Part shown: positions 4,238 through 61,380 of the stretch, piece after piece
Layout: every line of letters begins with the position of its first letter
Position numbering within the stretch: position 1 is the first letter of the stretch
Source: Candidatus Niyogibacteria bacterium
Lineage (GTDB): Bacteria; Patescibacteriota; Minisyncoccia; HO2-45-28
Direction of reading: 5' to 3'
NCBI GenBank assembly: GCA_016432485.1
Contig: CP066691.1
Span: 587,538-651,537, forward strand
DNA length: 64,000 nt
Made by a program: the position numbers and the translations under genes
Notes under the pieces: model-generated
Databases searched by the model: none
What the model was told of the DNA's origin: nothing
What the model saw: the letters and a program-made list of their open reading frames with translations, nothing else

Positions 4238-4374
4238 ATTTCGTCTCCGCTTTTAAGAAGATCTCTGATATTTATTTATATCAGAAAACGAAATTTTAGC
4301 AAACGCTTTTTAAAAAATGTTTGTGAGAAATTATCTGGTATTTCTCTTTCCAAAATTTGAAATGTCTAACTTGG

Positions 4375-4441
4375 TCGGGATGCTGGGAATCGAACCCAGT
4401 CTTTGCCTCCTTCGGAGCCACGGACTTCCGCAGGAAGTCCG
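4375..4441 (-). pseudogene. tRNA-Pro(CGG) 3'-half remnant (32-nt exact copy) plus a 9-bp hairpin
   Basis: tcgggatgctgggaatcgaacccagtctttgc is identical to 4472-4503 of the intact tRNA. No D-arm or 5' acceptor strand could be found. The hairpin cggacttcc-gca-ggaagtccg lies at 4421-4441. Confidence 0.55.
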
Positions 4442-4471
4442 GAAATTTTTATTGTTGTTTTACGAATCCTG

Positions 4472-4542
4472 TCGGGATGCTGGGAATCGAACCCAGTCTT
4501 TGCGCACCCGAAGCGCACGTACTGCCGGTATACTACATCCCG
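4472..4542 (-). tRNA. tRNA-Pro(CGG)
   Basis: 71-nt cloverleaf; anticodon stem TGCGC/GCGCA with loop TTCGGGT. Confidence 0.8.
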
Positions 4543-6053: not shown

Positions 6054-6815
6054 CTATTTGATTTTTCTTGCGGCAAAAATAATCGTGGCCGGGATTTTTT
6101 TAGCAAGCATCAGCCATTCGTTGTAATACTTCGTTGAACGAACGGCCGGCTTTGGTTCAAGCATTTTTTCTATAAAAAATTCGTTTTTTGCAAGCGCGTT
6201 GATTATACGTCCCACGGTTCTATGATAAATATAAAACGGAGCTTCTTTTTTTCCGCCGGACATAGTGAAATGAACTTTTCTCTCGGTAATATAATCCAAA
6301 GATTTGTCGCTGCGCTTTTCGCCATCCGAACGCGTCCCCGACCAGACAGGATGATTCAGGCTGAAAATGAATTTTCCGTCCTTTTTTAAAAATCGGCGAA
6401 CCTCGGCGAATAAACGGTTTAAGTCCTTGATATACTGAAACGCGTAATTGGAAACGACTAAATCAAAAGTATTTTTGGGAAAGTCTTTTGTATTTATCTT
6501 ATTTAAATCCTTTTTCAAAAAATTTGCCTTCAGACGCGCTTTTTTCATTCTGTTTTCAGCCAATTCAAGCTGTTTTTCTGAAAAGTCCGCCGCTGTAACT
6601 TTAGCGCCTTGTTTTGCCAGCCACCAAACATCCGGCCCGGAACCGCATCCCAAAACCAAGACCCTCTTGTTTCTTAACGGCGGGAGTAACTTCGCGTCTT
6701 TTTCCCAAGGGCCATAGGGACCCCAAATCAAACCGCGCTTAAAAAGCGGCTCCCATTCTTCAAAAAATGTTTTCGCCGCGGCATCCCAGCTTTTTTCTAA
6801 AATAATTTTAGCCAC
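6054..6815 (-). CDS. class I SAM-dependent methyltransferase
   Basis: VLVLGCGSGPD motif I; downstream D/E and acidic motif. Confidence 0.75.
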   Translation of the reverse strand: MAKIILEKSWDAAAKTFFEEWEPLFKRGLIWGPYGPWEKDAKLLPPLRNKRVLVLGCGSGPDVWWLAKQGAKVTAADFSEKQLELAENRMKKARLKANFLKKDLNKINTKDFPKNTFDLVVSNYAFQYIKDLNRLFAEVRRFLKKDGKFIFSLNHPVWSGTRSDGEKRSDKSLDYITERKVHFTMSGGKKEAPFYIYHRTVGRIINALAKNEFFIEKMLEPKPAVRSTKYYNEWLMLAKKIPATIIFAARKIK

Positions 6816-6852
6816 TGATTAATTATACTCTTTTTATGCCATTCGTTTTTCT

Positions 6853-6881
6853 TGACAAAATTATTATTTGGGTGTATAATA
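6853..6881 (+). promoter_or_regulatory. consensus sigma70-type promoter (TTGACA-17 bp-TATAAT)
   Basis: ttgacaaaattattatttgggtgtataat matches both consensus hexamers exactly with a 17-bp spacer. Confidence 0.55.
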
Positions 6882-6906
6882 GAAGATGGTAGAATAAACA
6901 AACGAA

Positions 6907-6944
6907 GAAAAAAGCCGTCGCGCGGAGCGCGGCGGCTTTTTTCT
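6907..6944 (+). terminator. GC hairpin + T-run about 30 nt downstream of the consensus promoter (candidate short RNA or leader)
   Basis: gccgtcgcgcggagcgcggcggc followed by ttttttc. There is no upstream plus-strand gene to terminate. Confidence 0.4.
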
Positions 6945-6983
6945 TTGGTTTCCATCGTTTTTATGGGACAATGGCTGTATTAC

Positions 6984-7056
6984 GCGCCCGTAGCTCAACG
7001 GATAGAGCGCCTGGCTTCGGACCAGGAGGTTGTGGGTTCGAATCCTGCCGGGCGCG
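6984..7056 (+). tRNA. tRNA-Arg(TCG)
   Basis: Acceptor GCGCCCG/CGGGCGC, D-arm TAGCTCAACGGATAGAGC, anticodon loop CTTCGGA, T-loop TTCGAAT. Confidence 0.85.
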
Positions 7057-7307
7057 CCGAAGCGACAGCGAGGCGCGAACGGAGCGAACAAACTGCTTTG
7101 TTCGCGTCAGGATGAGAAGGATTTTCTGATGTCTCTTGACCAGAAAATCCAGGCCCGAAGGGGAATCCTGCCGGGCGCGCCGAAGCGACAGCGAGGCGCG
7201 AACGGAGCGAACAAACTGCTTTGTTCGCGTCAGGATGAGAAGGATTTTCTGATGTTTCTTGACCAGAAAATCCAGGCCCGAAGGGGAATCCTGCCGGGCG
7301 CGCCGAA
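7040..7307. repeat. 123-bp tandem repeat, 2.2 copies, each starting with the last 19 nt of tRNA-Arg(TCG)
   Basis: gaatcctgccgggcgcgcc occurs at 7040, 7163 and 7286. The units differ by a single mismatch. Each unit carries the hairpin gcgaacaaa-ctgc-tttgttcgc. Confidence 0.85.
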
Positions 7308-7391
7308 TCTAGATAAACTACGCGTGTATTGAAAAAATACTGCTTGTGTGTTTATATCGGTTTAGATGGAAATAAGCCAGGAGGGACGACG

Positions 7392-8237
7392 ATGGAGTTG
7401 TTTCTTGACACCTGTGAAATTGAAGAGATAAGAAGGGCGGTCGCGACAGGACATATTTCGGGAGTCACCACGAATCCAACGCTTGCCAAAAAAGCGAACA
7501 GACCGGATTACAAAACGCTCATTCAGGAAATTCGCGATGTTTTTGCCGCAAATAATCTGCCGGCGGCTATAAGCGCCCAGGTAACCGAGAATCAGCCTCC
7601 TGAAATAATGTATAAAGAAGGCATGGATTTTTGGATGATGGATGCTCGAAGAATAGTTGTCCAGGTTCCCGCAACCAGAATCGGCCATAAAGCTATGGAA
7701 AGATTAAAACGGCCCGCGGATCTTGAAGTCAGAACTAACGTCACCCTAATTTTTGATCCGTGGCAGGCGCGCCAAGCAATGCTGGCGAGAGCGGATTTTA
7801 TAAGTCTTTTTCTGGGGAGCAAAGAAAAAGAGGCCATAGATCAATACGTGGCGGATAGAATGTTACAAAAATACGGCAGCACAAACCTCGATTGGCAGGT
7901 TTTTAACAAAAAAATTGCAGAAGAAAATGAAAGATTTTATGAAGAAGAGATCGTGAGAACAGGAACGCCGGAGGATTTTATCTGCAAAACACTCGCTTTG
8001 ATAACACAGATAAGAGACGTGGGCCGTTTCGCGACAAAAATTGTGGCGGCCAGCATAAGAGAAATGAGACACGTAGAAATCGCGAAGTGCCATGGGGCGG
8101 ATATAGCAGCGGTGCCTCCTGAAATTTTTTGGGAATTATACGCGGAAGGATTTAAACTTCTTGATAAAGACGACCTCGGTCTTACTCTTAAAGGAGTTGA
8201 AAGATTTTTGGAAGACAGGAAATTTTTAATCTCGTAA
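7392..8237 (+). CDS. transaldolase / fructose-6-phosphate aldolase family protein
   Basis: MELFLDTCEIEEIRRA...GVTTNPTL N-terminal signature. GGAGGG Shine-Dalgarno 7 nt upstream. The ORF track starts 63 nt earlier. Confidence 0.7.
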   Translation: MELFLDTCEIEEIRRAVATGHISGVTTNPTLAKKANRPDYKTLIQEIRDVFAANNLPAAISAQVTENQPPEIMYKEGMDFWMMDARRIVVQVPATRIGHKAMERLKRPADLEVRTNVTLIFDPWQARQAMLARADFISLFLGSKEKEAIDQYVADRMLQKYGSTNLDWQVFNKKIAEENERFYEEEIVRTGTPEDFICKTLALITQIRDVGRFATKIVAASIREMRHVEIAKCHGADIAAVPPEIFWELYAEGFKLLDKDDLGLTLKGVERFLEDRKFLIS

Positions 8238-8275: not shown

Positions 8276-9187
8276 TTATTTTCTCTTGCGCGCGTGAAAT
8301 GTTTTATGGATTTCGCTAAGCTGGCGGTTAGTGATGTGAGTATAAATTTGCGTGGTTGAAATGTTGGAATGCCCCAGCATTATCTGGACCGAACGCAAAT
8401 CCGCGCCGTTTGTCAGAAGATCGGTGGCAAAACAATGGCGCAAAGTGTGCGGAGTAACTTTTTTGGAAATGCCGGATTTGAGCGCGTGATATTTTATAAT
8501 TCTTTCTACCGAACGCGGAGTGAGGCGGGAATAGCTTATAGCTTTTAGCTTGTGGCTTTTAGTTCTTGGGAGGCGAACAAAAAGGGCCTCTTCAATGTCG
8601 GGCCGTTTATTCAGCCAATTTTCAACGGCTGACTTCGCGTCATCGGACAAAAAAACCAGGCGCACTTTTTCTCCCTTGCCTCTTACGCTGAACTCCCCCT
8701 TTTTCAAATTGACAGAATCGCGATTAAGCGAGCAAAGTTCGGACACACGAAGTCCCGTTGAAAATAAAAGCTCCAGAATCGCGCGGTCCCGCAAGCCCTT
8801 GGCGCCGTCTCCGGACGGAGAGACGATTAAACGCTCCAATTCGTCTTCCGATATTAAATCAATTTCGCGCTCCCCTGTTTTAGCCAATTCTATTTTCTCG
8901 GCAGCTAAACTCGCGATTTCGCGCCTGGCCAGATATTTTAAAAAACCGCGTAGCGCGATTAAATAATAATTTTGGGTCTTTTTCTTTAGATTTTTGCGAT
9001 TGAGCCACAGCCGGAAATCGCGTACAGCGTCATCAGTAATGTCGGCGGGTGCTGCGATTTTGGCAAAATCAAAAAAGGCGGCAAGATACCTGTCGTAATT
9101 ATCAAGGGTCTTCAGGCCTCGGCCTTTTTCAATTTCCAGATATTCCAAGTACTGCCTTAAAAAATCATTTTTATCCGAATGTCGCAC
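8276..9187 (-). CDS. tyrosine site-specific recombinase, XerC/XerD family
   Basis: HTLRHCFATDLL...GHSNISTTQIYTH catalytic box with R-H-R-Y residues. Confidence 0.85.
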   Translation of the reverse strand: MRHSDKNDFLRQYLEYLEIEKGRGLKTLDNYDRYLAAFFDFAKIAAPADITDDAVRDFRLWLNRKNLKKKTQNYYLIALRGFLKYLARREIASLAAEKIELAKTGEREIDLISEDELERLIVSPSGDGAKGLRDRAILELLFSTGLRVSELCSLNRDSVNLKKGEFSVRGKGEKVRLVFLSDDAKSAVENWLNKRPDIEEALFVRLPRTKSHKLKAISYSRLTPRSVERIIKYHALKSGISKKVTPHTLRHCFATDLLTNGADLRSVQIMLGHSNISTTQIYTHITNRQLSEIHKTFHARKRK

Positions 9188-27355: not shown

Positions 27356-27426
27356 GCGGGTGTAGTTTAATGGCAGAACATCTGGTTGCCAATCAGATAG
27401 CGGGAGTTCGATTCTCCCCACCCGCA
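27356..27426 (+). tRNA. tRNA-Gly(GCC)
   Basis: Acceptor GCGGGTG/CACCCGC, anticodon loop TTGCCAA, T-arm GGGAGTTCGATTCTCCC. Confidence 0.8.
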
Positions 27427-27680
27427 CAGAATTTCAGTTTGAACGCTTCATCGGCGCTTTTGCCGTTTCTGGATCATTACTTTTGCGGGTTATAACATGC
27501 GCTATTTGGGCGTGAGTAAGATACAGGGAATTTTAGTTGTAATTTTCCAGTTGAGATTCGCATTGTAAATGCGAAGTTTTTTATTTTTCGGAGAGATTCG
27601 AACCGAATAGAAAACCTTTACTTTTTGTAGCCCCCATAGTATATATGTACTAGAACTCAAATCCTCAGGAGGGAAAAGAG

Positions 27681-52562: not shown

Positions 52563-52638
52563 GTTAATTGGGCAAGCAAATGGGGGAAATTTATATCTAT
52601 TTTTGCCTCTTTACATCCTAAAATATAATTGTTAATAT

Positions 52639-52869
52639 TTGGTTATGAAATACTTAAATTTTTCTGTGATTATTGAAGAAGACAAGGATGGTTTTTTTGC
52701 TTTTTGTCCGGAACTTCGGGGGTGCTACACGCAAGGAAATACTTACGAGGAAGCGCTAAAAAACATAAAAGACGCCATAAAACTCCACCTTGCCGACATA
52801 GAGAAAAACAGGGAAAAACTGGAACGACCCAAATCCATTAGTTTGGCAACTGTTGAGGTAGCTGTTTAA
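52639..52869 (+). CDS. hicB: HicB-family antitoxin
   Basis: YSVIIEEDKDGFFAFCPELRGCYTQGNTYEEALKN (UPF0150 fold); directly upstream of hicA. Confidence 0.7.
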   Translation: MVMKYLNFSVIIEEDKDGFFAFCPELRGCYTQGNTYEEALKNIKDAIKLHLADIEKNREKLERPKSISLATVEVAV

Positions 52870-52876
52870 TTTTATT

Positions 52877-53104
52877 GTGTCTAGCGGGCTTCCGAGGACA
52901 AGAGCCAAGGATATAATCCGAGTTTTAGAAAAAATCGGATTTAGTTTTGCGCGTCAAAGCGGAAGTCATAAAATTTATAAAAATACCGAAAACAAACGAG
53001 TAACCGTGCCGTTTCACAACAACACTATTTTACATCCAAAAGTTTTAAAAAGTATCTTAAAAGACGCCGATATTGATGCCGAACAGTTGAAAAAACTGCT
53101 TTAG
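52877..53104 (+). CDS. hicA: HicA-family mRNA interferase toxin
   Basis: KDIIRVLEKIGF...RQSGSHKIY motif; 75 aa. Confidence 0.7.
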   Translation: MSSGLPRTRAKDIIRVLEKIGFSFARQSGSHKIYKNTENKRVTVPFHNNTILHPKVLKSILKDADIDAEQLKKLL

Positions 53105-53113
53105 TTTTGTTTA

Positions 53114-53136
53114 GGGGCCTAGAGGGATTTGAACCC
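53114..53136 (-). repeat. partial copy (20 of 21 nt) of the 3' end of tRNA-His (T-arm + acceptor strand)
   Basis: ggggcctagagggatttgaaccc versus gggtgcctagagggattcgaaccc at 58251-58273. No 5' tRNA half is present. Confidence 0.6.
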
Positions 53137-53236
53137 GCAACCTATTTTGCCACATGGAAACGCTCTGCCGTCGCTCTTTTTATTTCTTCATTGACCGTTC
53201 ATAGGTTGGGGTATAGCGTTAAATTAGAGATGGTCT

Positions 53237-53638
53237 TTGTATGAGAATGCCTCGGAGAACGACATGAAACAGTGGCATCCCGAAGCTGCGTGGCGTCTTT
53301 TGCCTGAAGAAAACCACGCGCTTCAATGCGCGTTTGAAACGGCATGGGACGCGGCCCTGCTTGAAGTAAAAGATTTCGCCGCATCTCATCGAGATATTGA
53401 AGTCCTTATGATTACATTTAAAAGTTGCGTTCCGGGGGTCATTTTGCCGGCGGCCGATGATTTTGAAATATTCAAACGGGTTATTGAATACGAGCTGGAT
53501 CGCTTAAATAATATTGATGAGCTCGGATCTACGGGATGCGGCAGCGACGATTGTTCGGCAGCGCGGCATCGCAAGGCGCTTAAGTCATTTTTAAAAAATA
53601 AGCTCGGCGTCAATTACAGACCCGCCGCCGATACTTAG
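53237..53638 (+). CDS. hypothetical protein (GC-rich)
   Basis: 133 aa; followed by a hairpin terminator at about 53655-53690. Confidence 0.4.
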   Translation: MYENASENDMKQWHPEAAWRLLPEENHALQCAFETAWDAALLEVKDFAASHRDIEVLMITFKSCVPGVILPAADDFEIFKRVIEYELDRLNNIDELGSTGCGSDDCSAARHRKALKSFLKNKLGVNYRPAADT

Positions 53639-53689
53639 AGTTTCAACTCAATAAAAAAGTGCGCGACCTATGTCCGCGCGCCTTTTTTA

Positions 53690-54076
53690 TTATTTTCTTT
53701 CTTTATAAGAAAATAAAAGATAATACATTGAAAGGAAAACAAGGTTAAAAAGCATACAATTGTAAGTGAGGGTTTCAGAAAAAGGAAGATATTGATTTAA
53801 AAACGCGGCGGCGAAAACGGCGGTATGGACAAAAAAGGCGGATTTAAAAACAGGTTGACTATAAGACGTGGCCGCGTAGGCAAAAAGCGCGAGCGTAAAT
53901 ATGACCCATGCCGGATGCGCGAATGACTGCCAATTTATGATATTCGGCCCGTCGACGGCCAGATATTTCAGGCCGTCAAACGCTATGACGATGCCGAAGA
54001 TGGATGCGTATAAAATAAGTTTTCGTTTCATATTAAGAAGGTTCCGACTTTTTTTAGTTAATGGGTCGGCAAACAA
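53690..54076 (-). CDS. polytopic membrane protein (hypothetical)
   Basis: Four predicted TM helices. Confidence 0.4.
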   Translation of the reverse strand: MFADPLTKKSRNLLNMKRKLILYASIFGIVIAFDGLKYLAVDGPNIINWQSFAHPAWVIFTLALFAYAATSYSQPVFKSAFFVHTAVFAAAFLNQYLPFSETLTYNCMLFNLVFLSMYYLLFSYKERK

Positions 54077-54096
54077 AGCCGCGCGGTCGAAGGATT

Positions 54097-54324
54097 TTAT
54101 AGCAGTTTTATAAATTCAGGCACAGAGAAGCCGATCTGTTTTATTATTGATTTAAGCGTTTTTGGCGTAAGTTCTTTTCTGTGGAACGGAATCGTTACTC
54201 TTAGTTTGCTTTTTGCCAGATGGCGCAGCTGAATGTGGCTTCCGCTTTGATGAAATTCATAAAAACCGGCTCGTTTGAGAGCTTTGATAACCAATGCGGA
54301 TGGGATGCGCGGTAATTTTGGCAA
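54097..54324 (-). CDS. hicA: HicA-family toxin (second copy)
   Basis: ALKRAGFYEFHQSGSHIQL motif. Confidence 0.65.
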   Translation of the reverse strand: MPKLPRIPSALVIKALKRAGFYEFHQSGSHIQLRHLAKSKLRVTIPFHRKELTPKTLKSIIKQIGFSVPEFIKLL

Positions 54325-54329
54325 ACGAT

Positions 54330-54566
54330 TTAAATGCTAGCTGTAACTTTCTCTCTTCGTCTGGTGTTGCCAATAAAAAAGGCCTCGTCTTTGAGAACGG
54401 CCTCCAAATAACATTTTATGGCATCTTGCGCCATTTCTCGAGCTTCTTTTAAATTATTTCCTTCTGTCACTAAACCCGGGAGTTTGGGAACTGTAACCGT
54501 ATATCCCGCGCCATTTGGCTCAAAAACAACTTCGTATTGTAATATATTTTCCTTACGTTTTTTCAT
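54330..54566 (-). CDS. hicB: HicB-family antitoxin (second copy)
   Basis: YEVVFEPNGAGYTVTVPKLPGLVTEGNNLKEAREMAQDAI. Confidence 0.65.
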   Translation of the reverse strand: MKKRKENILQYEVVFEPNGAGYTVTVPKLPGLVTEGNNLKEAREMAQDAIKCYLEAVLKDEAFFIGNTRRREKVTASI

Positions 54567-54767
54567 ATAGAAATATTATAACGCCATATTGCCAAAAATC
54601 AAATTTAACCCGGGTCAGCAAACAAGGCCGCGTCGCGTCAAACGCGATAGCGATTTGACGCGGTGGAATTAGTTCGAACCTGTTTTACGGTTGCCGTATG
54701 ATATTTCGGGTTGGCTTTGATTGCTGTTGCAAAAATCACCCCCACCCTGTAAAATCAACCCATAATC

Positions 54768-55313
54768 ATGGAATATTATATCCTTTTTCAAGGGCGCATT
54801 GATAAAGACGCGTCCTTGGCATTGATAAATGCGCTACTGGAGGCCAACGGAAAAAAAGAGGCCGAACATATAACCATGCTTTTTTCTTCAGTAGGAGGCT
54901 TTATTTACTATGGATTTAATATCGCTACCGTCATCAAAAATCTTGAAAAACCAATAAGAATTCATGCCACAAACGAAATAAGTTCAATAGCTAATGTTGT
55001 TTATTTGTCGGCAAAAGAAAGATCAGCCGAATCTTATGCCAAATTCTTTTTGCACGGAGCTTCAGTTGAGGGTAATCTTAGTTTAAACCTTGAAGATTTG
55101 AATGAACAAGTTTCGTCTATACAAGTCCAAAATGATAGACTGGCTAGGTTTATTTTTGAAACCACTGGAACTTCGATTGAAGAAATAAATCAAATGATGA
55201 AAGGCCGCAGATCTTTGTCGTCCGAGGAAGCTTTCAAGTATAATATTGTTCTTGAAGTAAAAGAGGAGCAGATACCAGTTGGCGCTTTAAGAAAAGATGT
55301 TATTTTCGTATAA
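54768..55313 (+). CDS. ClpP-like (S14 fold) serine peptidase, stand-alone
   Basis: MLFSSVGG...SSIANVVY...FFLHGAS aligns with the ClpP SPGG / GxAASM / MIHQP blocks. No clpX or clpA is nearby. Confidence 0.5.
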   Translation: MEYYILFQGRIDKDASLALINALLEANGKKEAEHITMLFSSVGGFIYYGFNIATVIKNLEKPIRIHATNEISSIANVVYLSAKERSAESYAKFFLHGASVEGNLSLNLEDLNEQVSSIQVQNDRLARFIFETTGTSIEEINQMMKGRRSLSSEEAFKYNIVLEVKEEQIPVGALRKDVIFV

Positions 55314-55320
55314 TTAAAAT

Positions 55321-55548
55321 ATGCTAAAAGAAAGTCTTAAAAATAAGATTAAAGAAATACTTGAAAAAATGGGTTGTGTTGATATTCAATTCTCAAATGG
55401 CACAGAAAATGAGGCCGCTGTTAGATTTAATTGCGAGATTTTGATAAGTTTTAAGACCGACCTGGAGGATTGGATATATTCAGGTATTCAACGTAACGAT
55501 CTTGGGGAACAAAAGTACAAGATTGGGTTTAAACGTAAGAGCAACTAG
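55321..55548 (+). CDS. small hypothetical protein
   Basis: 75 aa. Confidence 0.3.
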   Translation: MLKESLKNKIKEILEKMGCVDIQFSNGTENEAAVRFNCEILISFKTDLEDWIYSGIQRNDLGEQKYKIGFKRKSN

Positions 55549-55594
55549 GTTTTTAGGGTTATAAATCTTGAACCCCGTTTTTAAAAACGACTCT

Positions 55595-55807
55595 TCACTT
55601 ATCTAAATAACGATCTAGTTTTTTATATGATTTACTTATTAAACGAGAAATTTTATATATGACAAAAAGAGCAAAAAACCCAATAATGATTAGTAAGAAC
55701 CACCCACTAATGTCTAATAATTCCCGACCAAGGCCAGTTGTGGGTTTTAGATGATCTGGAGTTTCAACCGGTATTCCTCGTGAAAAATCAAATTCTTTTG
55801 GCGGCAT
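55595..55807 (-). CDS. small membrane protein
   Basis: 70 aa; one TM. Confidence 0.35.
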   Translation of the reverse strand: MPPKEFDFSRGIPVETPDHLKPTTGLGRELLDISGWFLLIIIGFFALFVIYKISRLISKSYKKLDRYLDK

Positions 55808-55846
55808 ATTATTAATTATAATGGATATTGTAAGTATTTGATACCG

Positions 55847-56296
55847 TTAAAATGTTCTATTTTTACAATGTCTCCAATCGTCCTCCATGATCGGATCTCC
55901 AACGCTAGCCCATCTATTAATGCAATCTACAAAATCTTCTAGTTTTGTTTTCGTATCTTCTGCAAATTCTTTTGCGTCTTCAAGCTGGCCTTGTAATGTA
56001 GATACGGCCCACTCTAAATCACTAATCTGACTTTCTAAATCATTAACTCTCCCCTCCAGTTCAGAATAACTTTGCCCATAAGTAGTTGGAGTTATTACCG
56101 TTTGTTTTTTAACTCCGCTTTCTTTTACGGAATGAATTTGCTCTAAATCAAACAGTGTTTCGCGTGGAGCCAAAGAAGAAGCGGTGTTATCATTTGGTTT
56201 TTCATTAAACACTGTAATATAAACCGCGGAGACCAATATGGATGTGAATAGTATTATCAGTAATGTTTTTATGCTGTAATTTTTCATGTCTTTCAA
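55847..56296 (-). CDS. membrane-anchored coiled-coil protein
   Basis: N-terminal TM; LESQISDLEWAVSTLQGQLEDAKE heptad region. Confidence 0.4.
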   Translation of the reverse strand: MKDMKNYSIKTLLIILFTSILVSAVYITVFNEKPNDNTASSLAPRETLFDLEQIHSVKESGVKKQTVITPTTYGQSYSELEGRVNDLESQISDLEWAVSTLQGQLEDAKEFAEDTKTKLEDFVDCINRWASVGDPIMEDDWRHCKNRTF

Positions 56297-56328
56297 CCAC
56301 TGAAGCTAATTTTGTTTGAGCCGGTTTT

Positions 56329-56517
56329 TCATAAAAACTTTTGGCGATTTTCGCCGTGTTCTTTGCCAAGATTATAAGCCAAAACAGCGGCGTAGATAAT
56401 ACCATAGAAAATATGGAAAGTTTGACCAAAGTCTACACTATCCATAGCCGCATCAATAAACGCCAATGCCAGGGGAGAAATTATATATAAAAATAAGAGT
56501 ATATTTTTTATTTTCAT
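56329..56517 (-). CDS. small membrane protein
   Basis: 62 aa; two TM. Confidence 0.3.
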   Translation of the reverse strand: MKIKNILLFLYIISPLALAFIDAAMDSVDFGQTFHIFYGIIYAAVLAYNLGKEHGENRQKFL

Positions 56518-56521
56518 ATTA

Positions 56522-56764
56522 TTATAAGGGGTTGTTGAATGTATCCCGATTAAGTTTTTGGAAGTTTTTTATTTCTCTTTCCCCAATATATTTACTAAAA
56601 CTATTTCTAAAATTATCCCCAAACCATTCAAGAGTGTCCTGTTGTGCTCTCAACCTTTTTAATTGATACTCTCTATAATTTATAAACATAAAACCAGCCA
56701 CAAAAATAGTAGCTATTATTAGGATCAACAATCTAAACCAATTTTCTTTTAACCAGTTTTTCAT
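56522..56764 (-). CDS. small membrane protein, MxxNWLKxNWF family (paralog 1)
   Basis: MKNWLKENWFRLLILII... N-terminus shared with 57014-57238. Confidence 0.45.
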   Translation of the reverse strand: MKNWLKENWFRLLILIIATIFVAGFMFINYREYQLKRLRAQQDTLEWFGDNFRNSFSKYIGEREIKNFQKLNRDTFNNPL

Positions 56765-56785
56765 GAATTTGTTTATACTATCAAA

Positions 56786-57010
56786 CTATAAATTAAACTT
56801 TCTCACGATTCTACGCCAAATAAATGAAACAATAATAGATAAACCGAGGGCAATTATAAAAGACTCATCTTCGGACAAATTCCGGCTACTGTCTGACCAA
56901 ATAAATATCACAGTAAAAAGTGATACGAAAATGAACGCCCTCTTTAAAAACGGCTTCAACAATACTAGTCGCCGCAGAGTTGGAAAATCGATTTTAAGCC
57001 AATCCTTCAT
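56786..57010 (-). CDS. small membrane protein (paralog 2, diverged)
   Basis: MKDWLKIDFP... ; two TM. Confidence 0.35.
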   Translation of the reverse strand: MKDWLKIDFPTLRRLVLLKPFLKRAFIFVSLFTVIFIWSDSSRNLSEDESFIIALGLSIIVSFIWRRIVRKFNL

Positions 57011-57013
57011 AAT

Positions 57014-57238
57014 TTATAATCCTTTTTCTCTTAAACAGAATTTGTAAAAAAAGTCGTAAACCCTATCTTGATCCTCAGACGCCTTTTTGGTTTTTTCGAT
57101 GGACTCTGTGTTACACTCTTTTACAATTTTGTTTGGCCTCCATTCATACCAATAAAAATAACTTGCAGAGATTACGACCATCAAGACAATCACCCCAACC
57201 TTAAACCAATTTTGTTTGAGCCAATTCATGGTCGACAT
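57014..57238 (-). CDS. small membrane protein, MxxNWLKxNWF family (paralog 3)
   Basis: MSTMNWLKQNWFKVGVIVLMVV... Confidence 0.45.
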   Translation of the reverse strand: MSTMNWLKQNWFKVGVIVLMVVISASYFYWYEWRPNKIVKECNTESIEKTKKASEDQDRVYDFFYKFCLREKGL

Positions 57239-57241
57239 GAT

Positions 57242-57436
57242 TTAACGATAACTCCTATATTTTTTAGCGTGAAAGTGGTGTTGGCCATATTTAAACCCCC
57301 ACTTCGGGCAATTTGTCCTACAAGTGTGGCCGCCTTTTCTGTCTGTTCTACCGGGGTGTGCCAACGCCTCAAATGGCGCAGAGAATACAAGCGCCGTGAA
57401 AGCAGTAAAAATAACTACTAAAATAAAATTCTTCAT
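57242..57436 (-). CDS. small secreted cationic His/Cys-containing peptide
   Basis: Signal peptide ...FEALA-HPG; mature about 42 aa rich in H, K, R and C. Confidence 0.4.
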   Translation of the reverse strand: MKNFILVVIFTAFTALVFSAPFEALAHPGRTDRKGGHTCRTNCPKWGFKYGQHHFHAKKYRSYR

Positions 57437-57444
57437 TTCGAGGT

Positions 57445-57696
57445 TTAGTACCTAAATCTGTATGATTTATATGGATCAGAGTATCCCTTTTTGCCCGTGT
57501 ACGGATTGTAATTACCGCGCGTGCTGTAGTTATCAAATCTAGTGCTATTGGGACTTGAGCGGTAATGGGGTAGGACATATGTGCCAGTGCGAGGTTTTAC
57601 ATACCCCCTCACTCTTACAGCTGCGTATGCGGAACCAGCGAAGACGAACAGACCAAAAATTATCAAAATCGCTGCTAAAAATTTAAAGTTTTTCAT
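57445..57696 (-). CDS. small secreted cationic Tyr/Arg-rich peptide
   Basis: Signal peptide ...GSAYA-AVR; mature about 57 aa rich in Y, R, K and P. Confidence 0.4.
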   Translation of the reverse strand: MKNFKFLAAILIIFGLFVFAGSAYAAVRVRGYVKPRTGTYVLPHYRSSPNSTRFDNYSTRGNYNPYTGKKGYSDPYKSYRFRY

Positions 57697-57764
57697 AATG
57701 TTTTAATTATACCATATCTAATAGAAATTGCAAGTGGGCGGGCAAATGGAGGAAGTTCGCGCCT

Positions 57765-58190
57765 TTACTTTTGGAGTTCTTGTTTGCGGCGAGCAAATTC
57801 AATTTGTAGGCGTGTTTTTGTTTTTTCTTCAAGAATGCCGTTTAAATTCCATAGCACCGTCCAGTCATACTTCGCTGAAAGTCGGCGAAAAAGTTCATAT
57901 ACAGCCATTCTTTCTTCAGAAATTATTTTTAAATTCTTGTCTTTTGTTTTGGAGCGCTCTTTTTCAGTGTCAACAGACCTCTCAAGTTCTTTCGCGTTTT
58001 TTTCTTTAGAGAAAGGAAAAAAGTTATGGAGTTCCACAAAAATCTCTTTCGGATATTTTAACAAATCTTCTATAACGGGCAGGTCTTCGGGCTTTATATC
58101 CCTGTCTTCAATAAACCTTTGAAATCTTTTTTCTTCCAAAGGAGAAGGTTCTTGTTGTGGGACCGACGACTCGCTACTTGATTCTTTCAT
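57765..58190 (-). CDS. hypothetical charged protein
   Basis: 141 aa; no motif. Confidence 0.4.
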   Translation of the reverse strand: MKESSSESSVPQQEPSPLEEKRFQRFIEDRDIKPEDLPVIEDLLKYPKEIFVELHNFFPFSKEKNAKELERSVDTEKERSKTKDKNLKIISEERMAVYELFRRLSAKYDWTVLWNLNGILEEKTKTRLQIEFARRKQELQK

Positions 58191-58250
58191 TATATTTTAT
58201 GGATTGATTAAAAATTGATTTGAGATTTTCTTTTAGAAATTCCACTTTGT

Positions 58251-58320
58251 GGGTGCCTAGAGGGATTCGAACCCTCGATAATTCCTCCACAGGGAACCGT
58301 GTTACCGCTACACCATAGGC
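58251..58320 (-). tRNA. tRNA-His(GTG)
   Basis: Extra 5' G (G-1) giving an 8-bp acceptor, anticodon loop CTGTGGA, T-arm GAGGGTTCGAATCCCTC. Confidence 0.8.
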
Positions 58321-58357
58321 ACCATTTTTGCCCGACACTTGGTGTCGGGCATTGGAT

Positions 58358-58660
58358 TTATTCGCGTAAAAGTTCTTGTTGGCCCTCTTTTTCTCCCAAG
58401 ATTTTTCGGCGCATGGCTTCCAGGGCTTCATCAGCGGCTTTTTTTTCGCGCCTGCGATCTTTTGGCGTTATCACTTTTTTTACCCCCTTTACGCCCTGCA
58501 TTTCAAGAATCATTTCTTTATCTTCAGGCGTCAGATTGTATTTTTCTTCGTTCTTTTCAGGCGTTTCTTGCGGCCGAAGGGAAAATTCTTCTTTAGGCAT
58601 GACCCTATAATAACAAAAAAATGCCTTTTGGCAAGAAAAAAGGCCCAAAACGGGCCGCAA
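58358..58660 (-). CDS. small charged hypothetical protein
   Basis: Probably starts at the internal MPKEEF (about 80 aa). Confidence 0.35.
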   Translation of the reverse strand: MRPVLGLFSCQKAFFCYYRVMPKEEFSLRPQETPEKNEEKYNLTPEDKEMILEMQGVKGVKKVITPKDRRREKKAADEALEAMRRKILGEKEGQQELLRE

Positions 58661-58669
58661 ACTATTACG

Positions 58670-59197
58670 CTATTCCGATGGCACGCCGGGCCATTCCTCA
58701 ATTCTAATCACCAGAGATTTTAAAGCTTGAATCAGCCGATCAAATGCCTGCCGCGCTTTTGGATTGTCCGAAAATAGCTTCTTTAATTCTTTGTTGCAAA
58801 ATCTGCGAGTATCTTTTCGAGCATGAACCATAAAAGTGTTGTTGTACAGCGAAGCATAGATTATAGACTCCTGAACATGAATATCGGATAAAGCCTTTGA
58901 CAATTCTTGACTATATGGATAACCTGCCCCCCTATAAAAATCTAATTGTAGGAGAGGCGGCAGATAGCACCCAAACATCTCTTGGAGCGCATAGAAAAGA
59001 GGATGAAAGACAGAATCGCGGCTATCCACAACTATTCTGGCTCGGGTTATTTTTCTGTTAAGAGGAGTATTACGGGCTTCTTCCAGCAGAAGGCGTATTA
59101 ATGCTAGATGCAAAAAATTTGTAAAACAGATTTCGTTCAAACTTTCTTGCCGCATACCGCCGCCTACGGCCATTCCCAACCTAAAAGTGGCGAGCAT
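58670..59197 (-). CDS. hypothetical protein, paralog A
   Basis: Similar to 59320-59811 (LQLDFYRGAGYPYSQELSKAL versus LNELRFSKRGAFPYSRELSETM). Shares an upstream 22-nt motif. Confidence 0.5.
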   Translation of the reverse strand: MLATFRLGMAVGGGMRQESLNEICFTNFLHLALIRLLLEEARNTPLNRKITRARIVVDSRDSVFHPLFYALQEMFGCYLPPLLQLDFYRGAGYPYSQELSKALSDIHVQESIIYASLYNNTFMVHARKDTRRFCNKELKKLFSDNPKARQAFDRLIQALKSLVIRIEEWPGVPSE

Positions 59198-59319
59198 TTT
59201 ATCTCTCCCTCAGGTTATTTGAGGATATTTACAACCCAAAAAGATTGTATCGCTATTCCGCTTTAAATACAAGCGCCCTGTTTTTTACAAGAAAACGGCC
59301 CTGATTGGGCCGCGTCTAT

Positions 59320-59811
59320 CTATATCGGGTAAATTCTTGTTTCTTTTAATGCTTCGCGAAGAAGTTTTTCTTTGAGGAAATCCACAAAGTCGCCGAAGAT
59401 TCGCAAGCGAATTTCATCATTTTTAAAGATCTCGCTCGTCTCTTTAAGCACTTCCTGAACACCATCTTTTTGCGATACTACATCAAAAGAATTTTCCCGC
59501 GTGCCAAAAATCTCTATGAATCTGCTCAGTCTTAAGATAGCCATGGTCTCACTAAGTTCGCGGCTATAAGGAAACGCGCCTCTTTTGGAAAAACGCAGTT
59601 CGTTTAATTCGGGAAGCGTTTGACCAAACCTTTTTTGAGCTTGCAGAAACACCCCGTGAAGCTTATCCGGACTATATTCAAATGTGCATCTAATGCGGCT
59701 GTCACCAAAACTAAGCACAATTGTTTTTAGGGCGAGAGTAAGAATATCCACGAAAATCGTCTTTGAATCGGGGGTGCTTTTCGTTTCCTCGGACACGCAA
59801 TCAACCTCCAA
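59320..59811 (-). CDS. hypothetical protein, paralog B
   Basis: See paralog A; the conserved tattccgctttaaatacaagcg motif lies 35-55 nt upstream of both genes. Confidence 0.5.
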   Translation of the reverse strand: MEVDCVSEETKSTPDSKTIFVDILTLALKTIVLSFGDSRIRCTFEYSPDKLHGVFLQAQKRFGQTLPELNELRFSKRGAFPYSRELSETMAILRLSRFIEIFGTRENSFDVVSQKDGVQEVLKETSEIFKNDEIRLRIFGDFVDFLKEKLLREALKETRIYPI

Positions 59812-59842
59812 GAGATGAACTACATCCTAAAATATTATTATA

Positions 59843-60091
59843 TTATTCCGCTTTAAATACAAGCGTTCCGTCTTTGGTCGGCTGGTCAACTTTTATCGCT
59901 ACTTCCTGACCTTTCTTAGCCGATTTAATCGCTTCGTGCTCAAGTTGCATTGACTCAACGGTCTGTGAAAATTCATTCTCTCCTTTCACGAATTTAACTT
60001 CGTCGCCCGCCTTGAGCGCGCCGTTTAGCTTAACCACGGCCACCATGGCCTTGTCGTAATAATGTATTACTTTGCCTAATGGTTTATTCAT
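59843..60091 (-). CDS. small translation-elongation-factor-like (EF-Tu domain 2-like beta-barrel) protein
   Basis: GKVIHYYDKAMVAVVKL...GDEVKF...SMQLEHEAIKSAKKGQEVAIKV pattern. Confidence 0.5.
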   Translation of the reverse strand: MNKPLGKVIHYYDKAMVAVVKLNGALKAGDEVKFVKGENEFSQTVESMQLEHEAIKSAKKGQEVAIKVDQPTKDGTLVFKAE

Positions 60092-60180
60092 ATTAAAAAA
60101 TGTTTAACCCGACCTTTACCATAATAATTCTATCATATATAATGGGTTCGGTTTTGAAAACTGAAAAAGGAGGAAAATGA

Positions 60181-61380
60181 ATGCGAGATGTTGCGATAAT
60201 TGGCGCGGGAATGACCCCTTGCCGTTCAAGATGGCTTGAAAAAACATTTTGGGAACTTTCCCAAATGGCAGTGGCTGAAGCAGTGCGCGATGCCCATATT
60301 CATATCAAAGAAATTGATGCCGGTGTGGTGGGTATTTACAACGATATTTTTGAGTTCCAGGCTATCCCCGAAAGCGGATTACAGGGGATCATCGGTCTAG
60401 CGAATAAGCCCCTGAAAAGATGCTCAAGTGGGGGCGCTACCGGCGCTTATACCATGCTTGAAGGATATACCTGGGTTGCAAGCGGACTTTATGATTTGGT
60501 TTTGGTTTTGGGAGTTGAGAAAGCGCTTGACTGCTACGATTTTGAAGCCCAAAGCCCGACACCGGCGGTGGTGCAAACCATTAGTTATTCTTGGGATCCC
60601 TGGTTTGAGCGGCCACTTGGCGCGCACGCCTCTTCAAGCTATGCAAAAGTCATTGCCGCTTATATGGACGAACATTCCGGCGACCTTGACCCACTGGCAA
60701 GAGCAAAAATTGTTGAACTTCTTTGCCAGCAAGCGCAAAATAATCCCTACGCCCAGCGTCTGGGTGAAAAGGTAACGGCGGATCAAGTCGTGCGGTCGCG
60801 TTATGTTGTCCATCCAATTCGGGCTCTTGAAACTTGCGTCTACACCGAGGGCGCGTGCGCTTTGGTTTTTGCTTCAGAAGAAATAGCCAAGGACATAGCC
60901 AAACGCAGCGGTCGCGATCCTGTCTGGATTACCGGCGTTGGCGCGGCTAATGAAAACTATTTTGTTGGCAGAGATATAACCCGTTATAAAGTTCTGAACC
61001 GCATTTATTCCGATTATCTTGCAACCAAGAAAGCTCTTGGGATGGCCCGTCTTACCATCAACGATATTCAAGTCATTGAACTGCATGATGCTTTCATCCC
61101 GCAAATGATGATTACGCTTGCTGAAATGGGAGTTGTGCCTTTGGGCCGCGCAGATGATCTGGTTAACGAGGGCATCATAATGCCTGGCGGCCGACTGTTA
61201 GTGAATCCTTCGGGTGGATTGGTTTTCGGCGGACATTTTGTCGGCGGATCAAACATGATGTCAACCTGGAGCGTTATGCGAGAGATGAGAACAAGGAATT
61301 TTGAACACGGCATGATTCATGGAACCGGCGCCAGCCGTTCAATCTACGGCGTGGCTGTTGTCCTTGAAAGGAGGGGTTGA
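60181..61380 (+). CDS. thiolase-superfamily protein (SCP-x / archaeal acetoacetyl-CoA thiolase type)
   Basis: Thiolase N- and C-terminal halves; Cys in RCSSGGATGAYT; C-terminal HGxGA-like region. Confidence 0.7.
   Translation: MRDVAIIGAGMTPCRSRWLEKTFWELSQMAVAEAVRDAHIHIKEIDAGVVGIYNDIFEFQAIPESGLQGIIGLANKPLKRCSSGGATGAYTMLEGYTWVASGLYDLVLVLGVEKALDCYDFEAQSPTPAVVQTISYSWDPWFERPLGAHASSSYAKVIAAYMDEHSGDLDPLARAKIVELLCQQAQNNPYAQRLGEKVTADQVVRSRYVVHPIRALETCVYTEGACALVFASEEIAKDIAKRSGRDPVWITGVGAANENYFVGRDITRYKVLNRIYSDYLATKKALGMARLTINDIQVIELHDAFIPQMMITLAEMGVVPLGRADDLVNEGIIMPGGRLLVNPSGGLVFGGHFVGGSNMMSTWSVMREMRTRNFEHGMIHGTGASRSIYGVAVVLERRG

Follow-up and report, generated by a model that had tools for sequence, protein, structure and literature searches.

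A 5'-truncated tRNA-His copy and a probably degenerate, strain-variable islet at tRNA-His in Candidatus Niyogibacteria

When a partial copy of a tRNA gene lies a few kilobases from the intact gene, is the DNA in between a mobile element? The question is raised by a locus in a Candidatus Niyogibacteria genome (GenBank assembly GCA_016432485.1), which we studied in a 64,000-nt stretch of contig CP066691.1 (positions 587,538 to 651,537; hereafter the window, whose own coordinates are used throughout). A copy of the 3' end of tRNA-His(GTG) lies 5.1 kb from the intact gene, and a first-pass annotation, made from the sequence alone, proposed that the segment between them (the islet) may be a decayed or satellite-type element, or else a new small mobile island. 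To our knowledge, few integration sites of mobile elements have been mapped at base resolution in the Candidate Phyla Radiation (CPR, Patescibacteria), whose genomes are small. We found that the copy is real, and that the locus is most likely a degenerate tRNA-linked islet, which is nothing out of the ordinary. Neither discreteness nor mobility could be demonstrated for the 5.1 kb as an element: its interior is mosaic, and variability extends beyond the bracket formed by the two copies. Coordinates of the features are collected in Table 1.

The 20-nt core of the repeat, GCCTAGAGGGATTYGAACCC, occurs exactly twice in the 64 kb, against 0.02 occurrences expected by chance; the only further match is the T-arm of tRNA-Cys, at three mismatches. 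In the direct repeat (53114-53136 and 58252-58274), 21 of 23 positions are identical, and the distal copy has the same orientation as tRNA-His and lies on its 3' side, an orientation and side already described in the first-pass annotation. The length given there, 23 nt, was too short: the copy comprises 49 nt and keeps the GTG anticodon. Its T-arm/acceptor core (53114-53136) is joined to a degenerate anticodon arm (53137-53162, ~66% identical), with a possible weak D-arm similarity up to ~53175. The whole is collinear with tRNA-His positions ~23-71 (37 of 48 aligned positions identical, one 1-nt gap), and the anticodon loop reads ATGTGGC. Statistical support for the similarity beyond the core is modest (p~0.02). 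The 5' acceptor strand and the 5' D-arm are missing, the stems are unpaired or degenerate, and neither ARAGORN nor Rfam calls a tRNA here. We considered and rejected a cryptic functional tRNA, since there is no 5' acceptor strand, the anticodon stem is unpaired and no tool calls the gene. Judged by its sequence, the distal copy is a genuine 5'-truncated tRNA-His remnant. No further His fragments that might mark a tandem array were present in the window at up to 8 mismatches in 27 nt. The sequence TTCGAACC at 54670 was considered as another tRNA scar and treated as chance, there being no match in its flanks.

A three-way alignment was made with a sister strain, L142 (GCA_964574495.1), whose 8.1-kb sequence covers the whole locus; it was reached through its 97%-identical DUF192 gene and belongs to a strain 97-99% identical to ours. 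The complete core is 29 nt long (sense strand, GGGTTCGAATCCCTCTAGGCACCCACAAA) and spans the T-stem, the 3' strand of the acceptor and 6 nt of trailer. The L142 fragment matches it at 27 of 29 positions, while the window copy has decayed further, through two substitutions and small indels. Immediately 5' of the core the two fragments are nearly identical to each other, yet only ~66% identical to the resident tRNA-His; this fragment-specific arm has the sequence CATGTGGCARAATAGGTTGC. On the 3' side they have only AAACAAAA in common, after which different cassettes begin. The geometry proposed earlier, resembling the left and right attachment sites (attL/attR) of an integrated element, holds, and the block of identity is sharply bounded at 29 nt. 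Identity that falls from 93% in the core to 66% in the anticodon arm fits an att core joined to a foreign attP arm better than the uniform decay of a local duplicate. This pattern also disfavours descent from a second tRNA gene, which the first-pass annotation had named as a possible refutation. The presence of the fragment in L142 makes it older than the split of the two strains.

The same tRNA gene is occupied in another genome. Candidatus Niyogibacteria RIFCSPLOWO2_01_FULL_45_48 (L050/L011) is the closest species-level relative reached, with a thiolase 86% identical. Its right flank is common with that of the window (82-aa (amino acid) gene, thiolase, HMG-CoA-synthase-like gene, tRNA cluster and ribosomal protein L19), and synteny runs up to tRNA-His, after which there is no match. 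In L050 the 3' end of tRNA-His overlaps the end of a gene for a 539-aa large serine recombinase (Resolvase, Recombinase and Zn_ribbon_recom domains), which is followed by three HTH_17 proteins, a tyrosine recombinase and an N6-methylase/HsdR-N protein. The occupied tRNA, the side of insertion and the neighbourhood beyond the tRNA are the same as in the window, but the L050 element differs from the islet in carrying recombinases, HTH_17 proteins and a methylase, in exceeding 9.3 kb and in having no gene homologous to any gene of the islet. The slot taken by the serine recombinase in L050 is occupied in the window by the 141-aa gene. A recombinase-bearing element at this position indicates that tRNA-His is a real integration site in this lineage. 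No partial tRNA-His copy marking the far end of this element was found in the 9.3 kb examined out of the 116-kb contig. Regarded in its own right, L050 713-9318 is a well-preserved CPR integrative element with both serine and tyrosine recombinases.

We read 53114-53162 as an attR-type scar, the fossil of an attachment site at tRNA-His, which would be an insertion hot spot across the lineage; we give this reading somewhat better than an even chance. Site-specific recombination, presumably by an integrase, would have brought foreign DNA into tRNA-His at its T-loop/3'-end region and left the scar behind, and the degenerate anticodon-arm part may have come from the attP arm of the incoming element. 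The DNA between scar and tRNA-His would be the eroded remnant of the insertion together with later additions, its recombinase lost and no autonomous mobility left. The core that is common to the sister strain consists of the 124-aa gene, the 113-aa gene, the inner HicAB pair and the 141-aa gene; a 3.1-kb low-GC (guanine-cytosine) block, whose junctions have no relation to the tRNA repeat, was swapped in, and the HicAB modules may help to retain the islet. The content of the islet, ORFans and toxin-antitoxin genes with one block of strongly atypical composition, supports this reading.

As can be seen from Table 1, the islet is not one coherent element, contrary to the earlier proposal. The fragment lies 5.1 kb from the tRNA in the window and ~2.4 kb in L142, the 3.1-kb block has been swapped, and so has the DNA outside the fragment. 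The strain-variable region is 52604-59843 (7.2 kb, from DUF192 to the 82-aa gene), and it extends to both sides of tRNA-His. Within it, the loss of 59276-59843 in L142 (5950-5994) and in contig L002 occurred through a 22-nt repeat, TATTCCGCTTTAAATACAAGCG, and is a separate strain-level indel. In composition, the block 54631-57734 is the only atypical part (GC 0.355, z = -5.9, tetranucleotide distance greater than that of every control window); the rest of the islet has normal composition. Further to the right, the thiolase at 60181-61380 has 81-86% protein identity to dozens of metagenome-assembled genomes of Acidobacteriota/Terriglobia and to a few CPR genomes, and L142 carries an unrelated 453-aa thiolase (6308-7669), with the switch exactly at the start codon. 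From the sequences, this looks like a xenologous replacement between close strains combined with cross-phylum transfer.

The distribution of differences between the window and L142 separates the locus into parts. Islet DNA common to both differs at 12 of 1874 positions (0.64%) and the left flank at 29 of 1718 (1.7%), while the 3' part of the fragment (53112-53130) differs at 7 of 19 (p=1e-10). No differences at all are present in 58216-58333, which comprises the proximal core, tRNA-His and 11 nt of leader. Divergence is 28% from 58334 onward (28% over 58341-58656) and 3.8% in 59844-60180 (p=2e-5). The partition implies that the history of the bracketed DNA is not that of the DNA around it. The distal core contains one of the breakpoints; the other could fall in the proximal core or just 5' of tRNA-His.

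Several results weigh against reading the fragment as an insertion scar. No recombinase domain was detected in any open reading frame (ORF) of the islet by Pfam and further profile searches; the first-pass annotation had likewise noted the lack of an integrase. No empty site was seen in either of the two informative relatives, L142 having the same fragment and L050 a different element, so that the comparison with relatives proposed at the outset yielded none, and neither genome supports sporadic presence of the islet as a unit. No circular or alternative junction was recovered among contigs of the same population. Variation also reaches outside the bracket, into the 0.5 kb next to the fragment and, 5' of tRNA-His, into another 1.2 kb. 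The contrast between islet and left flank (0.64% versus 1.7%, p=0.004) is modest and comes in part from clustered differences. The low-divergence unit ends 11 nt 5' of tRNA-His and not visibly at the core, a limit that may reflect only the conservation of the tRNA. The 3' acceptor strand of the fragment, TAGGCCC, would mispair at 2:71 with the resident 5' strand, GTGCCTA, which means that the window copy has mutated since or was never part of this tRNA-His. A ClpP-like gene of the islet and its partner are, judged from their homologs (see below), a conserved CPR two-gene pair and not typical cargo of a mobile element, which counts against a discrete element. Finally, a second repeated sequence, motif M, is interleaved with the tRNA repeat at ~465-510 nt from each core, an arrangement that a simple insertion model does not predict.

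Searches beyond the locus gave the following picture. The two recombinases of L050 had no tblastn match in 52.6-58.3 kb. The only tyrosine recombinase of the window, at 8276-9187, lies 45 kb away; we rejected it as the missing integrase because it is Xer-type. Contigs of the same population were looked up by exact protein identity (thiolase, ClpP-like, DUF192, 175-aa, 124-aa and 80-aa proteins); all those returned were 99.97-100% identical to the window and had the occupied form. One of them, L006, ends exactly at 58333, from which it follows that the sample also contains an L142-like strain. At the other end, L006 and L008, from two samples, start at 53239 and L130 ends at 53268, the overlap being exactly 30 nt (k-1). 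No difference between the window and L142 lies close to this break (the nearest are at 53147 and 53301), and we take this to suggest that the population includes yet another form of the islet, a third one, so far unseen. In viral contigs, no relatives were found for the ClpP-like, 141-aa and 124-aa proteins, nor any exact match to motif M, the tRNA-His core or the fragment arm; only the 83-aa secreted protein has relatives there (~50% identity, in prophage-type contigs). A blastn search of the islet against deposited phages and plasmids returned no match, and comparison of the cargo with phage families, as recommended with the first-pass annotation, gave matches in PHROGs only for the ClpP-fold protein and for the 83-aa protein (phrog_29674). 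A defence-system reading was rejected, the PADLOC matches being at noise level only. The first-pass interpretation is partly supported: the att-like geometry holds, but the segment is not a discrete unit and its interior is mosaic; for a new small mobile island or satellite we obtained no positive evidence.

Motif M is ~35 nt long and begins TGGGCRRGCAAATGRRGGAARTT. Its only two copies in the window match each other at 23 of 35 positions. The spacing from M to the tRNA core is ~465 nt in the first unit of L142 and 511 nt in the second unit, and three unrelated inserts are found between a copy of M and a core: the outer HicAB pair in the window, the 107-aa gene in L142, and the 141-aa gene. No homology exists between the two units from M to core at the DNA or the protein level. 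In both strains, breakpoints of sequence history fall inside M and inside the core. M has no significant folding (z from -0.5 to +1.5), and neither other loci nor viral contigs contain a match to it, so that it is unique to this lineage. An integron-like cassette array was considered and dropped: there is no integrase nearby, M does not fold significantly, and the only recombinase in the window is the distant Xer-type enzyme. The tRNA-His core and M might together delimit an exchangeable slot of ~0.45 kb, that is, a cassette-exchange system or one served by an integrase in trans, at tRNA-His in the CPR; we think this improbable. If it were true, an integrase-less islet would still be moved between co-occurring strains. 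A two-layer array could cover all of these observations: on our analysis, the outer HicAB cassette with the first copy of M could be the stump of an older, related element, and the islet a newer one, M being in that case a conserved feature ~470 nt from the att core of this element family. The slot flanked by M and the core is the one feature that the reading as a degenerate tRNA-linked islet does not account for.

The interleaving of M and the tRNA core at similar spacing (465 versus 511 nt) also invites the main rival explanation, which needs no integrase. A ~0.55-kb unit made up of M, a small gene and tRNA-His could have been duplicated, or received by homologous recombination from a related strain; the left tRNA would then have decayed, and the islet would be whatever accumulated between the two copies. 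The divergence of the strains at the first M and at the fragment core, as if whole units of M, gene and core had been exchanged, is consistent with this. We regard it as unlikely, though to be taken seriously, since nothing between M and the core is homologous across the units, tandem duplication would be expected to place the copies side by side and not 1.9-4.6 kb apart, the contrast between core and anticodon arm is contrary to uniform decay, and the fragment is cleanly truncated at its 5' end like displaced att fragments. Alternatively, the insertion could be 52604-57734 with M as its att core and the tRNA-His fragment as internal cargo, such as a carried attP. M does occur exactly twice in the window, both times at a junction of strain-variable DNA, but the poor match of the two copies, the lack of structure in M and of matches elsewhere, and the arrangement of variable DNA at both inner ends around a conserved middle, with no single unit that is present or absent, make this highly improbable, and it would leave both the tRNA-core geometry and the hot spot in the relative without account.

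On a further reading, the islet is a live satellite without an integrase, its 5.1 kb being mobilised in trans, either by a helper element or by a recombinase encoded at another place in the 837-kb genome. The common islet DNA is indeed less diverged (0.64%) than either flank, with breakpoints at or near both cores, recombinases targeting tRNA-His exist in the lineage, and the contig breaks at 53239 and 58333 suggest co-occurring variants. We nonetheless consider this very improbable. The break at 58333 is explained by the co-occurring L142-like strain; no excised, empty or alternative junction was recovered; the islets differ internally, by the replacement of 3.1 kb with 0.64 kb and by the 208-nt deletion; the two core copies have accumulated differences (21/23 identical in the window); and viral, phage and plasmid collections contain no related sequence. 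As for a fortuitous resemblance between T-arms, which are conserved among tRNAs and include the tRNA-Cys match at three mismatches, it is for practical purposes refuted by the 0.02 expected matches, by a similarity that runs through the His-specific acceptor strand, the discriminator and the GTG anticodon loop, and by conservation of the fragment in L142 (27/29, trailer included). A fossil att scar beside tRNA-His is the reading we retain.

Table 1. Features of the tRNA-His locus and their counterparts in the sister strain L142
Feature	Position	Strand	Basis or remark	In L142
Left flank	to 52603			common, 97.5% identical
Motif M copy 1, left junction (J1) of the outer cassette	52569-52603	+	just after the DUF192 stop codon	
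Outer variable cassette (outer HicAB), GC 0.365	52604-53104			unrelated 425 nt with a 107-aa ORF instead
HicB1	52645-52869	+	Pfam	
HicA1	52877-53104	+	Pfam	
Segment with fragment, 124-aa and 113-aa genes	53105-54037			common, 98.4% identical
Distal 5'-truncated tRNA-His copy, attR-like scar, 49 nt	53114-53162	-	alignment	same place
124-aa ORFan adjoining the fragment	53264-53638	+	no family match	98% identical
113-aa membrane protein	53690-54031	-	gene call	99% identical
Segment overlapping HicA2	54038-54245			208-nt deletion; HicA2 cut to 27 codons
Inner HicA2 (toxin-antitoxin pair with HicB2)	54097-54324	-	Pfam	
Segment with HicB2	54246-54630			common, 99.7% identical, intact
Inner HicB2	54330-54566	-	Pfam	
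Strain-specific low-GC block, 3.1 kb	54631-57734	.	L142 comparison, composition	unrelated 0.64 kb with an AAA_18 gene instead
Hairpin at left edge of the 3.1-kb block	54634-54662		9-10 bp stem, -14.7 kcal/mol, z = -3.9	
ClpP-like gene, inside the 3.1-kb block	54768-55313	+	Pfam CLP_protease	
75-aa partner of the ClpP-like gene, inside the 3.1-kb block	55321-55548	+	conserved pair	
Eight small membrane/secreted protein genes, inside the 3.1-kb block	55595-57696	-		
YHYH-domain peptide	57242-57436	-	one of the eight small genes	
phrog_29674 protein, 83 aa, secreted	57445-57696	-	PHROGs; one of the eight small genes	
Promoter-like site at right edge of the 3.1-kb block	57733-57706	-		
Segment with 141-aa gene and tRNA-His	57735-58333			nearly identical
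Motif M copy 2, right junction (J5) of the 3.1-kb block	57735-57769	+	just after the stop of the 141-aa gene; 29/35 against the first M of L142	
141-aa acidic ORFan adjoining the intact tRNA-His	57765-58190	-	found only in this genome and L142	99% identical
Proximal core copy, 29 nt, attL-like site	58246-58274	-	three-way alignment, junction sequences, repeat search	
Intact tRNA-His(GTG)	58251-58322	-	ARAGORN; Rfam RF00005, 65.2 bits	identical
Sequence beyond the tRNA-His leader	from 58334			sharp sequence divergence
Second strain-variable segment, 5' side of tRNA-His	58657-59843	-	two paralogous ORFs, 175 and 163 aa, 27% identical	
Left part of the second segment	58657-59230			unrelated DNA instead
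Right part of the second segment	59276-59843			absent (also from contig L002)

Among the proteins of the islet, the 141-aa and 124-aa ones are ORFans; the 124-aa protein has 3 matches among 1.84 billion representatives. The HicAB pair reported earlier within the segment is there, but a second pair lies immediately outside, ending 10 nt from the tRNA-His fragment. Both pass the Pfam cutoffs (HicA_toxin, E 1e-19 and 1e-18; HicB_lk_antitox, E 6e-10 and 4e-9) and consist of adjacent HicA and HicB genes. In domains and gene adjacency they are the same as other HicAB type II toxin-antitoxin modules, differing in that one toxin is truncated in L142. The two pairs are only 35-40% identical to each other and are thus not the product of a recent duplication. 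The earlier count of about ten tiny membrane or secreted proteins was right as to their kind; the number in the islet is nine, of 62-146 aa, each with a signal-peptide-like (hydrophobic N-terminal) or transmembrane segment. The hairpin at 54634-54662 sits between the divergent HicB2 and ClpP-like genes and may be an operator or a recombination-related structure.

The ClpP-like protein had been described as a stand-alone protease. Its ClpP fold is upheld (Pfam CLP_protease, 65 bits against a cutoff of 20.2; best PDB match 9uxt_A, a 183-residue 'Clp protease', E 2e-8), but it does not stand alone, being accompanied by the conserved 75-aa partner gene. By curated cutoffs it belongs neither to ClpP proper (best NCBIfam ClpP model, 59 bits against 228) nor to phage head-maturation proteases (NF045542, 41 bits against 120; PHROG head-protease matches partial), and its neighbours are genes for small membrane proteins, not capsid or portal genes. 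Its Ser and His align with the ClpP motifs in PDB chain 4jcq_A, while no acidic residue aligns at the position of the DTDR motif; the catalytic triad was placed within this alignment according to the known ClpP motifs. Homologs 54-73% identical occur in four other CPR genomes, always with a 72-82-aa partner gene downstream, next to MraY, FtsW and MurG (L139), SecA and NUDIX (L140), RecA and FtsK (L149), or HrcA, GrpE, DnaK and DnaJ (L150), and in none of the four is tRNA-His or a recombinase nearby. For annotation, the lesson is that this ClpP-like gene is no evidence of a phage.

How does the islet compare with known systems? Under published criteria, a genomic island is larger than 5 kb and encodes a serine or tyrosine integrase, and the accompanying software treats tandem island arrays (PMC9580842). 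One boundary of the islet is its intact target gene (tRNA-His 58251-58322); the other is a fragment of that tRNA, displaced on the 3' side as a direct repeat (core 21/23 in the window, 27/29 in L142). Having no integrase inside, it falls outside the integrase-based definition; against the limit of ~5 kb (PMC9580842), it measures 5.1 kb in the window, and the L142 counterpart ~2.4 kb. With the Islander/TIGER islands (Williams group) it shares the tRNA with a displaced 3' fragment, a block of identity from the T-arm to past the gene end, and a content of toxin-antitoxin genes and ORFans; it differs from them in lacking an integrase, in its borderline size, in the absence of any empty site found and in its strain-specific mosaic. 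Tandem or fossil islands at tRNA and tmRNA genes, as generally known, likewise consist of foreign layers split by att remnants, with mobility genes lost and internal deletions, but here there is only one tRNA fragment, with no second one to bound an older element of the kind supposed. In phage satellites and small integrative mobilisable elements the integrase is self-encoded, usually together with genes for replication or interference. The islet resembles them in small size and integration beside a tRNA, but has no integrase and no replication or interference genes, and PHROGs recognises only the ClpP fold and one small secreted protein.

As a control, the ends of all 21 tRNAs of the window were scanned against the 64 kb. 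(For a genome with a largest contig of 837 kb, 21 tRNA genes within 64 kb are packed very densely.) tRNA-Pro(cgg), at 4471-4542, has a perfect 33-nt direct copy of its 3' part at 4374-4406 on the minus strand, 64 nt downstream. This copy, GCAAAGACTGGGTTCGATTCCCAGCATCCCGAC, runs from the variable loop to the 3' end and follows a weak D-arm-like degenerate extension and a 9-bp hairpin; it is not recognised as a tRNA. Its sequence resembles another att-type scar, in which the DNA between the copies has almost disappeared. At 948-970 on the minus strand, GCGGGATTAGTTTAATGGCAGAA shares 21 of 23 positions with the 5' end of tRNA-Gly(gcc) (27356-27427); it lies ~107 nt upstream of tRNA-Gly(tcc) (770-841); ARAGORN and Rfam call no tRNA there, and a 5' tRNA fragment or a decayed gene is possible. 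The recurrence of stray copies of tRNA ends in this genome fits tRNA-targeted recombination followed by erosion.

The geometry of a tRNA fragment taken alone thus overstates the discreteness of such an 'element'. If our reading is right, tRNA-His would be an insertion hot spot in Candidatus Niyogibacteria, where integrase-less scars persist at tRNA-His and probably also at tRNA-Pro. Co-occurring strains that are ~98% identical differ by kilobase-scale swaps of cassettes encoding small surface or secreted proteins and toxin-antitoxin genes, and this cassette variation could matter for the episymbiotic lifestyle and for phage resistance.

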